Positions 4,849 to 9,394 of a stretch of 64,000 nucleotides of DNA are shown here, one piece after another. How positions within the stretch are numbered: the first letter of the stretch is position 1; each line of letters opens with the position of its first letter. The notes below the pieces were generated by a model that had not been told where the DNA came from, did no database searches, and saw nothing but the letters and a program-made list of their open reading frames with translations. The translations under genes were made by a program, and so were the position numbers. Source of the DNA: Escherichia coli (GTDB lineage Bacteria > Pseudomonadota > Gammaproteobacteria > Enterobacterales > Enterobacteriaceae); assembly GCF_001677475.2 (NCBI RefSeq), contig NZ_CP015229.1. One strand, written 5' to 3'.

Positions 4849-5928
4849 TTAGCTGTTCAAATCAGAAGTCGTATTCCCCGGTAGAACAATATTACTGGCA
4901 GCAAGTTCGCCCATGTTGTTGTATATCGCACAAGCAGCTTCGATGATGGGCATCGCCAGAGCTGCACCACTCCCCTCACCTAAACGCATATCCATATTGA
5001 GATAAGGCTCCAGCCCCAAATGCGACAGCGCTATACGCGCGCCTTTTTCTGCCGACAAGTGAGAAGGAATGAGATACGGTTTGATTGCAGGAGACATCTG
5101 GTAGGCTGCGAGCGCAGCAGCATAAGAAAGAAATCCATCCAGCAACACAGGTAAACCGCAGGAAGCAGCGCCTAACATCACGCCAGCCATTCCGACCAAA
5201 TCAAATCCACCCACTTTTGCCAGGACATCAACGCCATCCTGAGGATTTGGTTTATTCAACGTAATCGCCCGGCGCACAACATCAATTTTATTAGCCAGTT
5301 TATCTGTCGGCAGGTTTGCGCCAATCCCAACCACTTCTTCAGGATCCCGGCCAGTGATTGTGCTGACTATTGCCGCTGCCGGTGTCGTGTTTGCCATCCC
5401 CAGTTCACCTACACCAAACAGCGTGACACCGTTTTTTGCCAGCTCCCGCGTATAACATATGACGTCCAAAAGCAACTTTTCAGCCTGACGGCGACTCATT
5501 GCCGGAGCTGAAGCAATATTGCCGCTACCTCGTGCGACACGCATGTTGATAAGCCCGGGGATAGGCTTAGCAGTATCAATACCAACATCAATTACGTGGA
5601 CGTTAGCGCCCGCTTGTGCTGCCAGCACACACACGCCGGTTGTTCCGCGGGTCATATTTTCAGCCTGAATGGCTGTCACTTCTTTTGGGGAAATAGCGAC
5701 CCCTTCCTCCCAGACGCCGTGATCGGCACACATAACCAGTACTGCTTTTTTGCCCACATGCGGTATGCCATTCAACCCCGGCATTCCCGCCAGTTGTATG
5801 GCAAGCGCCTCCAGCCTTCCCAGGCTACCAACAGGTTTGAGTAACCCGTCGATATGCCGTTGTGCACGCGACATAGCGGCAGGATCGATGGCAGGGATCG
5901 TATTCAGTAAATCGGCAAGTGTTTGCAT
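4849..5928 (-). CDS. cobT: Nicotinate-nucleotide--dimethylbenzimidazole phosphoribosyltransferase
   Basis: 359 aa CobT family ([40 protein letters not shown]...). Confidence 0.93.
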
Positions 5929-5939
5929 GTCACGTCTCT

Positions 5940-6683
5940 TTATAGCATTGCCAGCAGGAAGACCAGTTCACCTAGCTCTATGGCTGCTCCCAGCGTATCG
6001 CCGGTTTGCCCGCCCAGCGTACGTTTGAGAAGCTGACCGAGAATGAAAATCGCAGCCATCGTCAACACCATAGCAGCCACACCATGCATACCCGGCAATA
6101 ATACGGCAGCAAAAATAGCGGCTAAGCCGAGTGTGACGCAGGTTTGTCGCCCATCAATTTTGCCAATGAACACATTGCCAAGCCCTTCTTCCCGGGCATA
6201 ACGATGACGATACATCAATAATGTGGCAGTCCCGCGGCTGACCGCACATGCTGCCGCCAGCGATGCAAGGATCGGTTCGCCACGCAGAGCCAACTCGCTT
6301 AACACCAGAATCTTTGCCAGTACAACAAAAATCAAGGCCAGACCGCCGTGGGTGCCTAACCGGCTATCCCGCATGATTTCCAACATGCGTTCGCGACTAC
6401 GTGCAGAAAATACGCCATCACAGGTATCGGCGAGGCCGTCCAGGTGGAATCCCCCGGTCATCAGCGCCAGCACAAGTACGCTAAACAGTGCCGCCAGTGG
6501 TACGCCACACCATGCCTGCAGCACCATGAAGACCAGCCCGCTGATCGCGCCAAGCAATAATCCAATCAAAGGAAAAGTAATAATACCGCGAGAATAATGC
6601 TCGAAATCCAGTCCCTGGGACCAGCGACGCGGTACAGGCAGACGCGTAATAAAAGAGAGCATCGCCCAAAATAATTTACTCAT
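5940..6683 (-). CDS. cobS: Cobalamin (5'-phosphate) synthase
   Basis: Polytopic membrane protein; true start taken at [18 protein letters not shown] (tracker ORF is 12 codons longer). Confidence 0.9.
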
Positions 6684-7225
6684 TTGATTTTTACTCCAAT
6701 ACCCGAAACCACCAGCCATACTTCATTTGCCGCAGCGGCCAGCTGCTGATTTACCCGCCCGGCAATATCACGAAAATGTCGTGCCAGACGACTCTCCGGC
6801 ACAATCCCCATACCCACTTCGTTAGTCACTAATACAACCTTTGCGGGGCAACGTTGGCAGGCAGTAATCAACGACTGAATCTCAGCATTAATCGCCTGTT
6901 CCATCACCTGATAATCCCATTCATCAGGGTCTTTATCGCCGCCATAATCAAACAACAGATTAGTCACCATTGTGGTAACGCATTCCAGCAACACAGCCTC
7001 ATTCGGGTTAATGTCTGCATGAATTAATTCATCAAGATGTTGCCAGCGCTCCACTGTGCGCCAGTGCGCCGGGCGGCCTTGCCGATGATGTTCTATCCGT
7101 GCAGCCATCTCATCATCAAGGATTTGCGAGGTGGCGATATACAGAACCTGTGAAGAGTCCCCAATAAGCGCCTCTGCGTGGCGACTCTTCCCGCTCCGTG
7201 CGCCCCCCGTCACCAAAATCATCAT
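6680..7225 (-). CDS. cobU: Adenosylcobinamide kinase / adenosylcobinamide-phosphate guanylyltransferase
   Basis: 181 aa, P-loop [18 protein letters not shown]; overlaps the cobS start. Confidence 0.93.
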
Positions 7226-7358
7226 ACCGACTCCTGATTCATTTGTATGATGGTATTCATTGAACAGAACAATGGATCCCCCACCGTTGCTGACCGCAAA
7301 ACATTTACGCGATTAATACTGCGCGTAATATAATTAAAAATCCAGTATTCTCAATCCA

Positions 7359-7796
7359 TTACGAAAGAAGATGGCATTGCGGGATAGCCAGACTTCCTCG
7401 TGTTAACGTCCGACAAAATGCGTCATTGACAGCGGTTTCTCTGGCATGACAGATTTCATTCAGATAATGGATTAATGCTGCAGCCCCACCAGCCGGACCA
7501 GTCAGCAAACGGGCATTGTGTTCTGCAATCAAAATTACCGTCGTTCCCTCAGAATGAGCGAGCCATTCTGGTACAGATATCTCGCTTTCAGCTGCTATCA
7601 ATAGCAGCACTGAATAATCGCTATATGCATCTGATAACGATTGCACAGGCCCACCGTCAAAAGGCTGGAAATCTTGCTGCCAGTCCTCACCAACAAAACA
7701 GGTTATTGGCAATATTTCAGCCAGATGTTTCGCCAGGTCCACATCTCCAGATAAGAGGCAAAAAAGAGCTATCGATTCGGGTTTTATCGTTTTCAT
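7359..7796 (-). CDS. Hypothetical protein (145 aa from MKTIKPES; tracker ORF begins earlier at a GTG at 7865), function unassigned
   Basis: ORF between the cobalamin riboswitch and cobU on the same strand; GGAGGG Shine-Dalgarno 9 nt before the ATG; I cannot match it to a Cbi/Cob family. Confidence 0.45.
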   Translation of the reverse strand: MKTIKPESIALFCLLSGDVDLAKHLAEILPITCFVGEDWQQDFQPFDGGPVQSLSDAYSDYSVLLLIAAESEISVPEWLAHSEGTTVILIAEHNARLLTGPAGGAAALIHYLNEICHARETAVNDAFCRTLTRGSLAIPQCHLLS

Positions 7797-7899
7797 GCCC
7801 CTCGCCCTCCACTTAATTTCCTGTAATGGCGGTCTGGTTGATAAGCCATGAAACAAGATTGCCACACCTTAAGTGCAGCCCTGGTGCCTGTCGGCACTG

Positions 7900-8170
7900 C
7901 GATGAAAGAACTAAATGATGCCGCCATACCCTGATCCTTTCAGGGTGGTAGGGGTATAAAGACGCGCCTGTACTCTACCTGACGCTTCCGGGCAACCCAC
8001 TTCCCACCGAAGTTGTTGGTATTGACTGACTGGCTGGTCTTCTGGCTTAGCGTCATCCTCACCCGACCTTCCCAATCTCGCGATCAGTGGCATTTTCGGG
8101 TTTGTCAGCATTACAGCAGCGGGGGCTGCGAGGGATTTTCACCCTCTTCCCAGGCACAAATGTGCCACAC
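7900..8170 (-). promoter_or_regulatory. Cobalamin (adenosylcobalamin) riboswitch, cob-operon leader type
   Basis: Minus strand reads ...GCCTGGGAAGAGGGTGAAAATCCCTCGCAGCCCCCGCTGCTGTAATG...GCCACTG...GGGAAGG...AAGCCAGAAGACCAGCC (B12-box) = conserved cobalamin aptamer core. Confidence 0.85.
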
Positions 8171-8277
8171 CTGTCAGCGTATGTTATGAGCTGATTTCAC
8201 TTTTCCCATAACAGGTAAATAACGTTAATTATTCATTCCAGCGTTTATTTAAACCTTCCCTTTTTTTAGCATTTACT

Positions 8278-9192
8278 CTATACCGTTTCCATCGCCGCAT
8301 TTTCACTCACTTGCTGTCGATACACCTGCGGCGTAACCTGATAAGTCTGACGAAAAACTTTGCAAAAATAACTGGTTTGTGAAAAACCTAAATTACGCGC
8401 AATGCTGGCGATGCTCCAGTCGCTATGGCACAGTAACTCACGAGCGCTGGCCATCCGTTGTTGGTTTACCCACGCATTAAACCCGATTCCATGGTATTTC
8501 TTGAATAACTTACTGAAATAATAAGGGCTTAGATAAACATGCGAGGCGACATCTTCCAGACGCAAATCGTCTGATAAATGCGCATCAATATAGCGTAAAG
8601 CTTTTTTCATTTTATTGTCGTGGGGACCAGGCGCACGAGTCTGGCGCACCGAATCTGACTGAGATTTGTTCTCTTTAATAACCACAAAATTGAGTTGTTT
8701 TTTGAGGCAATTTTCTACAATCAACTTCAACAAATCAGCAGAGGCCATAACTCTTGAGTAATCCATCTCAGGGACTTTGCGAAATTCATTAAGTAATTCG
8801 GGATCTGCCTGCCAGCAATCATCGACATTCAGAATATCGACCAAATCGACATCATCATTACGCAGACGAACTTGCCCGCACAATACAAAACCGACTAAAT
8901 GCCCGGCGATTACCAGTGGAATAGAGAAATCGGTTAATCCGGCATGACAGCGATAAATACAAGGCTGATCGGATTTAGAGGCTTCCAGGCCCCCACAACG
9001 ATCGCTCATGCGACATCGAGTGCTTAGCTGAGGGTGTTGCCGCATCAACTGACAAAATGGAGTGAAGTTAAACAGCTCGGAAATTTCATCGCCGTGAATA
9101 TTGACCACGACAACCGCAAGGCTGGTCGCCTGCGCAAAATCCTGCGCGATTTTATTAATGAGTTCTGAATTAAGTGTCGCCGCAGAAATCAT
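8278..9192 (-). CDS. pocR: AraC-family regulator of the pdu/cob regulon
   Basis: 304 aa; C-terminal AraC-type HTH; matches Salmonella PocR as I recall it. Confidence 0.9.
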   Translation of the reverse strand: MISAATLNSELINKIAQDFAQATSLAVVVVNIHGDEISELFNFTPFCQLMRQHPQLSTRCRMSDRCGGLEASKSDQPCIYRCHAGLTDFSIPLVIAGHLVGFVLCGQVRLRNDDVDLVDILNVDDCWQADPELLNEFRKVPEMDYSRVMASADLLKLIVENCLKKQLNFVVIKENKSQSDSVRQTRAPGPHDNKMKKALRYIDAHLSDDLRLEDVASHVYLSPYYFSKLFKKYHGIGFNAWVNQQRMASARELLCHSDWSIASIARNLGFSQTSYFCKVFRQTYQVTPQVYRQQVSENAAMETV

Positions 9193-9394
9193 GATAAAAC
9201 CTCCCAGTTAATTTATTGTTATAGCAAAACAATTGTTTTACATTTAATCTTCACATCATCCTTGATGATTTACTGACGAGAAGCACAAAGGACAATAACA
9301 AAAGCCTCCGTGAAGCGGGAGACTTTTTAATAAGTTCGGAAAGCAGATCACAAACAGTAAAAAAATAAACGTTTATAACTGCCAGATTATTTCG

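Follow-up and report, generated by a model that had tools for sequence, protein, structure and literature searches.

The open reading frame (ORF) at 7359–7796 on the minus strand of a 64,000-nucleotide (nt) stretch of Escherichia coli DNA (assembly GCF_001677475.2, contig NZ_CP015229.1; this whole stretch is called the window, and coordinates refer to it unless a locus is named) lies between a cobalamin riboswitch and cobU. It is the in-frame 5′ third of cbiG, the gene for the cobalt-precorrin-5A hydrolase of the anaerobic cobalamin pathway (PMC7242693), and we are nearly certain both of this identity and of the anatomy of the operon relic in which the ORF stands. Across the genus Escherichia the frame is very probably maintained by selection, and its coupling to the riboswitch through a short upstream ORF is likely. 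As to what is retained, we favour with moderate confidence a CbiG N-domain protein that is weakly selected and probably regulated by vitamin B12 and propanediol. This accounts for both an ORF without assignment and a riboswitch that looked orphaned in pdu-positive E. coli, and it traces precisely how Escherichia lost most of its cob operon.

A cbiG fragment in a reduced cob operon

The first-pass annotation had placed an unassigned ORF of 145 amino acids (aa) between a B12 riboswitch and cobU. The ORF (145 codons from its ATG, with the stop codon at 7359–7361 and 133 nt between its end and cobU), its peptide (identical to the one quoted there), the RF00174 aptamer and cobU (7225–6680) were all located; the strand, which had not been given, is the minus strand. 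The proposed Shine–Dalgarno sequence, GGAGGG, is present at 7810–7805, at a spacing of 8 nt from the ATG rather than nine. When all six frames were compared in seven Escherichia lineages, the ORF frame alone was free of stops and the other five carried 2–13 stops each; given this and its significant CbiG homology, the ORF exceeds chance. An antisense ORF of 113 aa (7475–7816, plus strand) and the other four frames were rejected for their stops in other lineages. An alternative GTG start at 7865 (168 aa) is disfavoured by the conserved Shine–Dalgarno sequence and ATG and by the alignment to CbiG residue 1.

Although it had been described as fitting no family, the ORF is placed as the N-terminal part of CbiG by the NCBIfam profile NF004463 (cobalt-precorrin-5A hydrolase, CbiG; E = 6e-21), on which ORF residues 1–119 align with positions 1–126 of 351; its score of 74.9 bits falls below the curated cut-off for full CbiG, which is 546 bits. 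An exhaustive profile search likewise recovered full-length CbiG proteins, matching over the first ~125 residues only, while a word-indexed protein search with the ORF returned Escherichia copies only and a sequence search of the PDB returned no match. In an alignment with CbiG of complete operons, the ORF runs colinear with it from residue 1, with four in-frame deletions, and covers residues 1 to ~132, possibly to ~165; its tail aligns weakly but colinearly with residues ~140–165, and homology is marginal over the last ~25 residues. Ending at about CbiG residue 132–165, the ORF has neither CbiG_mid nor CbiG_C, whereas full-length relatives carry PF11761 and PF01890. The homology is thus in frame and N-terminal, not the out-of-frame match to an internal part of a cbi gene that had been considered as grounds for dismissing the ORF.

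Structure prediction, which had been proposed alongside profile searching, pointed the same way. The AlphaFold2 model (predicted local distance difference test score, pLDDT, 73) is a small alpha/beta domain, and Foldseek against the PDB gave its highest probability (0.99; template modelling (TM) score 0.54) to the CbiG homologue 3eeq_B, the one specific match, which ranked 12th by E-value; no PDB entry was matched at E ≤ 0.001, and the best E-values belonged to generic Rossmann-like folds. Among the features of CbiG membership that we compared, the ORF product has the N-terminal homology alone and, judged by these, is not a CbiG enzyme. The homology is already implicit in databases, because RefSeq labels many copies of the ORF ‘cobalamin biosynthesis protein’ (others are ‘hypothetical protein’). 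In the full-text literature covered, which did not include the classic E. coli cobUST papers, there was no account of the relic, its genus-wide conservation or the riboswitch coupling.

To place the fragment, we set the window against two complete pdu-pocR-cbiA...cbiP-cobUST regions, L013 (Klebsiella pneumoniae) and L014, with blastn, tblastx and an nhmmer profile from seven Escherichia copies. The relic consists, in order, of the cob leader with its riboswitch, a 44-codon cbiA′-′cbiF ORF, cbiG′, the last ~36 codons of cbiP, and cobUST, all on the minus strand. The leader (7928–8222), including aptamer and expression platform, has its homologue in the leader that precedes cbiA where the operon is complete. 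By blastn, window 8222–7919, which runs through the leader into the first cbiA codons, corresponds to L014 3678–3987 at 80.6% identity and to the K. pneumoniae locus at 76.6%, and in the L014 alignment the start codon of cbiA falls on the ATG at 7927. This ATG opens the 44-codon leader ORF (7793–7927), in which the first ~15 cbiA codons are fused in frame to the last ~12 cbiF codons: its N terminus, MAASFSSFIAVPTGT, resembles CbiA MAARHHAFILAGTGSG, and its 3′ end aligns with that of cbiF.

Downstream, window ~7831–7425 matches the 3′ end of cbiF and cbiG nucleotides 1 to ~397, with an nhmmer E-value of 1.5e-22 for the relic profile against cbiG of the complete operons; the start codon of the ORF and its overlap with the preceding cbiF frame are the native cbiG arrangement. 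The cbiP remnant (7226–7333) lies in a frame other than that of the ORF, is interrupted by stops and keeps the native overlap of the cbiP stop with the cobU start; it was recognized by blastn (window 7333–7101 to L014 17981–18218) and nhmmer (E = 1.6e-4), and its end was compared with the CbiP terminus YTIMQQHQEPV. The cbiG′/′cbiP junction is bracketed to 7425–7333. For the middle of the leader ORF (7918–7832) there was no significant match to cbiA, cbiF or other sequence in three complete operons; an origin from cbiA with the P-loop deleted is possible, on visual impression. Missing from the window are cbiB–cbiE, cbiT and cbiH–cbiO, and cbiA, cbiF and cbiP are reduced to small end pieces. In both reference operons cbiG itself is frameshifted (L013:10001-11055 and L014:10001-11055), because both loci were found through truncated CbiG proteins; its first ~150 codons are intact.

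On this comparison, the locus is a pdu-pocR-cob region of the Salmonella/Klebsiella type that was cut down by two deletions in the common ancestor of Escherichia. One removed cbiA after about codon 15 through cbiF, sparing the last ~12 cbiF codons, and the other cbiG after about codon 132–165 through cbiP, sparing the last ~36 cbiP codons. The junctions are common to the species, which indicates that both deletions occurred once, before the genus diversified. The only real fusion, by the same alignments, is the upstream 44-codon cbiA′-′cbiF ORF and not the 145-aa ORF.

Conservation and selection across Escherichia

Conservation among related genomes had been named as a check on the ORF, and its absence beside the same junction as evidence against it; we found the ORF present and intact wherever the junction exists, in E. 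coli and in other Escherichia species. The whole pocR–riboswitch–ORF–cobU junction occurs in 644 of 5,426 complete E. coli genomes. About 200 further complete genomes, of the IAI1 type, carry a deletion from about codon 33 of the ORF into a pduV remnant, by which the riboswitch, pocR and nearly all of pdu disappeared in one event (L003:3598-3894, E. coli JNE082640). Most other E. coli, including K-12, retain only the last ~57 codons, beside IS5 or other sequence. The same arrangement with an intact ORF of 144 aa is found in E. albertii, E. marmotae, E. whittamii, and E. ruysiae-type and other cryptic lineages, and E. fergusonii has a 156-aa version (49% identity) behind the same upstream junction, with cobUST deleted.

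The K-12 3′ fragment (L002:3260-3431) is 90.8% identical to the window, compared with 97–98.5% for cobU, cobS, cobT and the cbiP relic, and has a 9-nt deletion and an early stop. Its 9% divergence was at one point read as decay after truncation, an interpretation that we withdrew on finding the same allele in rare full-length variants of 136 aa (P0005, P0008–P0010), which points to an old haplotype.

That the frame stays open at 144–156 codons in all seven lineages very probably reflects selection. We simulated neutral evolution on the observed tree under a simple null model (Kimura two-parameter, K80, with uniform rates): all six tips other than E. fergusonii remained open with P = 0.0015 at the ORF’s own rate, and in 0 of 4,000 runs at the third-position rate or the synonymous rate of flanking genes. 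The 44-codon leader ORF alone stayed open in 14% to 2% of the same simulations, which is not significant by itself. No disabling stop or frameshift was found in the ORF in the seven lineages or among eight E. coli alleles, and in the six non-fergusonii lineages neither the ORF nor the leader ORF contained a frameshifting indel, while flanking non-coding stretches had indels of 1, 5 and 6 nt.

The proposed test of the ratio of nonsynonymous to synonymous substitution rates (dN/dS) also indicated purifying selection. Pairwise dN/dS of the ORF was 0.30–0.58, with a mean of 0.43. The Nei–Gojobori (NG86) estimator is biased where transitions dominate, and it was calibrated with a null in which all changes but stop codons are neutral; this stop-avoidance null gave a dN/dS of 0.74 ± 0.18 and a 1.03-fold excess of change at third positions over first and second ones, against 0.43 and 1.6-fold for the ORF. 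Three phylogenetically independent pairs gave P = 0.003, 0.001 and 0.24. Constraint is concentrated in codons 1–66 and 86–116, where the ratio is ~0.33 and synonymous change is high, so it acts on amino acids and not on nucleotides; loop codons 67–85 (ratio 1.1) and the tail (0.64) are both effectively neutral. By this estimate, roughly half of the amino-acid changes are removed by selection. All 8 alleles sampled from E. coli are intact, and their segregating sites (14 synonymous, 14 nonsynonymous) give a ratio of nonsynonymous to synonymous polymorphism (pN/pS) of 0.32, similar to the 0.26 of 5′ cobU. Against E. fergusonii, at synonymous sites that are saturated (distance >1.2), ORF dN/dS is 0.32–0.37 and the leader is 86–88% identical. 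The leader ORF peptide is nearly neutral, with a dN/dS of 0.2–1.2 and equal change at the three codon positions.

Two species have kept the ORF while losing genes behind it. In E. albertii (two strains) at least four deletions, together with stops, are found in cobU, and cobT is missing, while the 435-nt ORF and the leader ORF are free of lesions and the dN/dS of the ORF is not raised on the E. albertii branch. At an equal per-nucleotide lesion rate, ~4 lesions would be expected in the 567 nt of both E. albertii ORFs, for which we estimate a Poisson P of ~0.015. For a gene fragment it is unusual to be held intact with its riboswitch across a genus, even where cobU or all of cobUST has been lost.

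Probable riboswitch coupling and the nature of the retained product

The riboswitch that precedes the relic is an adenosylcobalamin (AdoCbl) aptamer (8015–8189, minus strand; RF00174, full model 1–189, 109.5 bits against a gathering threshold of 31.5, E = 1e-27) on the same strand as the ORF, which it precedes by 218 nt, and 87 nt ahead of the leader ORF start. It scores 105–113 bits in six other Escherichia loci, including those of species that have lost cobU or cobUST, with 112.9 bits in E. fergusonii. Leader identity between Escherichia species is 86–95%, at 0.3 to >1 substitutions per synonymous site in flanking genes. Directly 5′ of the cbiA ATG at 7927, a hairpin that sequesters the ribosome-binding site (7928–7946, ACCCUGA-AAGGA-UCAGGGU) encloses AAGGA; it appears in the minimum-free-energy and centroid folds, and its 7 pairs are paired in 95.9% of alignment cells over seven lineages. 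The riboswitch had been called an orphan, a description that fails here, as it is followed by the hairpin and by the original cbiA start, which opens the 44-codon ORF that overlaps cbiG′.

The TGA of the leader ORF overlaps the ATG of the cbiG′ ORF (ATGA), and exactly 44 codons with this ATGA overlap occur in 11 of 11 non-fergusonii loci. In E. fergusonii the leader ORF has 49 codons, ends in YANDKA (CbiF: HEYRKA) and retains the native 20-nt cbiF/cbiG overlap, which is in a different frame. RNAalifold further predicts a hairpin (7786–7859) in which the leader-ORF coding sequence pairs with the Shine–Dalgarno sequence and AUG of the ORF. Its helices 4 and 5 are paired in 89–92% of cells with three pairs changed on both sides, compared with 30–47% for slid controls, over seven sequences and with the structure derived from the same alignment; the modelled hairpin is a suggestive candidate for the basis of translational coupling. 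A terminator-like stem with a U-run also occurs inside the leader ORF (7861–7879, minus strand), the U-run being the 5′ arm of the hairpin over the ORF start.

In Salmonella, PocR activates both the pdu and the cob promoters, and B12 control of cob acts on the translation of cbiA. In the mechanism that we consider likely, bound B12 would occlude the cbiA start, and in its absence translation of the 44 codons would melt the hairpin and let ribosomes initiate cbiG′ at the ATGA. The ORF would then be translated, by coupling to the leader ORF, only at low B12 and, through PocR, in the presence of propanediol, and the in-frame cbiA–cbiF deletion would have preserved the native chain of translational coupling. 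The earlier suggestion of a B12-regulated gene gains moderate support from the conserved riboswitch, the hairpin, the coupled leader ORF and purifying selection; the regulation itself is predicted from sequence.

On the protein reading that we hold with moderate confidence, the Rossmann-like CbiG-N domain, which has neither the middle and C-terminal domains of CbiG nor the signature motifs of its N-domain, would itself be the selected entity: a domesticated fragment that would follow pdu and B12 use in its role and would not act as a cobalt-precorrin-5A hydrolase. Whether selection falls on this protein rather than on the act of translation alone we judge to be evenly balanced. A more specific version, in which a stand-alone CbiG N-domain, induced by propanediol and repressed by B12, has a non-hydrolase Pdu/corrinoid role (for example, binding incomplete corrinoids, passing them on, or serving as the partner of a Pdu or Cob protein) for which the riboswitch was kept, is put forward tentatively, and a non-catalytic binding or partner role in corrinoid handling is a guess of low confidence.

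Several observations weigh against a selected protein. The motifs GATGIAVR, DPAVVVIDE, SGH (LLSGHxGGAN), ADPVITTATDVN and DPVITTATDVN of the CbiG N-domain are replaced or deleted in all Escherichia copies, and a Pfam scan of the ORF returned no match even at E ≤ 10, CbiG_N (PF11760) no longer detecting it. Constraint is weak, the dN/dS of the ORF being 3- to 10-fold above that of its neighbours (0.03–0.2 for pduF, pocR, cobU, cobS and cobT), and one independent pair (that with P = 0.24) is close to neutral; the neutral null model is, moreover, a simple one. Some full-length alleles have an in-frame 9-nt deletion and end 6 codons early. The 5′ part of the ORF has disappeared, together with pdu, from 88% of complete E. 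coli genomes, so the ORF is dispensable outside a pdu-positive background, and its loss always accompanies that of pdu. Retention in E. albertii and E. fergusonii is suggestive and not decisive, as the losses of cobU and cobUST may be of any age. Lastly, a similar pattern would be expected of a peptide that is translated without having a function and is selected only for being harmless.

The alternative that survives best, though we think it doubtful, is a translated spacer acting in cis, in which the peptide would be irrelevant and the open frames would let ribosomes cover the ~0.7-kb relic, avoiding Rho-dependent polarity into cobUST; B12 repression at the cbiA start and PocR control would, with the same doubt, be carried on to cobUST. 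Such a role would account for a leader ORF that stays open and always overlaps the next start (by ATGA, or by 20 nt in E. fergusonii) while its peptide is near-neutral, and for a cbiG′ ORF that is open in all lineages while its loop and tail evolve neutrally. It would also fit the strong conservation of the riboswitch and hairpin, the loss of the ORF wherever pocR and the riboswitch are lost, and the action of B12 on cbiA translation in Salmonella. However, a spacer selected only to avoid stops should not fall below the stop-avoidance null (0.43 against 0.74), with constraint in two blocks of high synonymous change, or resemble cobU in pN/pS within E. coli. The ORF also ends 133 nt before cobU with a promoter-like site in the gap, most E. 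coli keep cobUST without this conduit, and a rut-like C-rich, G-poor stretch was looked for in the ORF mRNA and none was found. Nor does a conduit into cobUST suit the intact ORFs of E. albertii, whose decayed cobU is untranslatable before cobS, and of E. fergusonii, where cobUST is absent. All these points speak for the protein reading.

A neutral pseudogene remnant, open by chance and not yet destroyed, is improbable and disfavoured. The fragment does lack the catalytic parts of CbiG, with decayed motifs; the K-12 piece is called a pseudogene by the Prokaryotic Genome Annotation Pipeline (PGAP), many E. coli have deleted the ORF and its dN/dS is much above that of neighbouring genes. Against chance stand the six lineages that are all open (P = 0.0015 or less), the open frame in E. 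fergusonii at a synonymous distance above 1.2, the lack of frameshifting indels in the ORF and leader ORF that distinguishes them from flanking non-coding stretches, the third-position excess, the dN/dS under the null, and the decay of the adjacent cobU in E. albertii.

It had also been proposed that the ORF is a chimera left behind when the cbi genes were deleted. A leftover of cbi loss it is; its sequence is, however, that of the 5′ part of cbiG only, and a fusion protein (cbiG′-′cbiP or similar) created by the deletion is very improbable: the ORF does sit at a deletion junction and its last ~25 residues are only marginally CbiG-like, but cbiP homology begins at 7333, downstream of the stop codon, in another frame and with stops upstream, the tail is weakly colinear with CbiG ~140–165, and no other cbi gene matches the ORF. 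That the product is still a true CbiG hydrolase, as homology to the CbiG N terminus might suggest, is refuted for practical purposes on sequence grounds, with 74.9 of the 546 bits required, a match to profile positions 1–126 of 351, no middle or C-terminal domain and no substrate pathway, because the other cbi genes are absent from the window and from 5,426 complete E. coli genomes (cbiH–L-like DNA included).

If the product of the retained CbiG N-domain is functional, the locus would be a case of fragment domestication under inherited riboswitch control and would add a new participant to the metabolism of propanediol and B12, a trait that has been linked to E. coli associated with gut inflammation (PMC9220930); a riboswitch, together with part of one gene, would have outlived their whole pathway by acquiring a different function. 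If the ORF instead serves solely as a translated spacer, it would offer a clear natural case of selection on the act of translation and not on the protein.

Neighbouring genes and comparison with known systems

Upstream of the relic lies pocR (8278–9192, minus strand), a propanediol-responsive AraC-type activator assigned from the ORF list, the RefSeq annotation of the matching E. coli region and Pfam PocR/HTH_AraC matches on orthologues; beyond it come pduF on the minus strand and pduA on the plus strand. Between pocR and pduF, the small RNA STnc230 (RF02075, 76 bits; 9253–9336, plus strand) is found at this position in every Escherichia and Klebsiella locus and in L014. Downstream, the late nucleotide-loop-assembly genes cobU (6680–7225), cobS (5940–6683) and cobT (4849–5928) together span 4849–7225 on the minus strand, with names from RefSeq and dN/dS of 0.03–0.2. 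After the ORF stop and upstream of cobU there is a sigma-70-like promoter candidate (TTGAGA-N16-TATATT, 7327–7354, minus strand; 10 of 12 consensus positions), near the cbiG′/′cbiP junction, which may drive cobUST in strains without the cob promoter. The count of 10/12 sites in the region is not above shuffled expectation; of the five lineages aligned, four have TTGAGA as the −35 hexamer, the exception being E. albertii with TTGATA.

Other Escherichia loci differ in their surroundings. The E. albertii cobU pseudogene (L004:6436-6960, and L018) has deletions of ~90, 9, 43 and 1 nt plus stops that are common to the two strains, with cobT missing and cobS intact. This cobS (L004:6958-7701) has a synonymous distance of 1.0–1.3 to other Escherichia, compared with 0.1–0.5 among the others and 0.45 for pocR of the same genome, which points to a boundary, left by recombination or transfer, that separates cobS from the relic in E. 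albertii. In E. fergusonii (L011:8471-8700) cobUST is deleted from just past the 156-aa ORF to 12 nt before the cobT end, leaving ldtA directly next; a glycyl-radical-enzyme microcompartment cluster lies beyond ldtA, and the pdu region is ~74% identical to the window with saturated synonymous sites. In E. marmotae (L006:315-1968) gene calling splits pduC, which encodes the large subunit of diol dehydratase, into ORFs of 212 and 329 aa; the gene has either become a pseudogene or been sequenced with an error. E. coli Z142-6 (L022:1448-1800) has a pocR annotated as frameshifted, and the adjacent 145-aa ORF and riboswitch are intact.

Compared with CbiG itself, the ORF product shares the N-terminal alignment, the native start and cbiF overlap, and a predicted fold like the N-domain of the Sulfolobus solfataricus CbiG homologue 3eeq. 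It differs in comprising about the first third of the protein, without the middle and C-terminal (CobE-like) domains, in its four in-frame deletions and in the lack of a surrounding cbi pathway. A precedent for a single CbiG-derived domain as a separate small B12 protein is CobE, which belongs to the aerobic pathway, stands alone and shares homology with one domain of CbiG; it corresponds, however, to the C-terminal domain of CbiG and the ORF to the N-terminal one, and no homology between the two is expected.

The pseudogene that PGAP annotates in E. coli K-12 as ‘cobalamin biosynthesis protein’ is the 3′ ~57 codons of the same relic, likewise beside cobU, but in K-12 the first ~88 codons are missing, as are the leader ORF, the riboswitch and pdu; the piece lies adjacent to IS5 and carries the 9-nt deletion and early stop. 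The closest parallel for the control region is the cob leader of Salmonella and Klebsiella, where, reportedly (Richter-Dahlfors, Ravnum and Andersson), an AdoCbl riboswitch exerts translational control over cbiA. The two leaders are 77–81% identical, with aptamer, ribosome-binding-site hairpin and cbiA start at the same positions downstream of pocR, whereas what follows is different: cbiA and 17 biosynthetic genes in Salmonella and Klebsiella, and in Escherichia a first ORF of 44 cbiA′-′cbiF codons feeding a fragment of cbiG.

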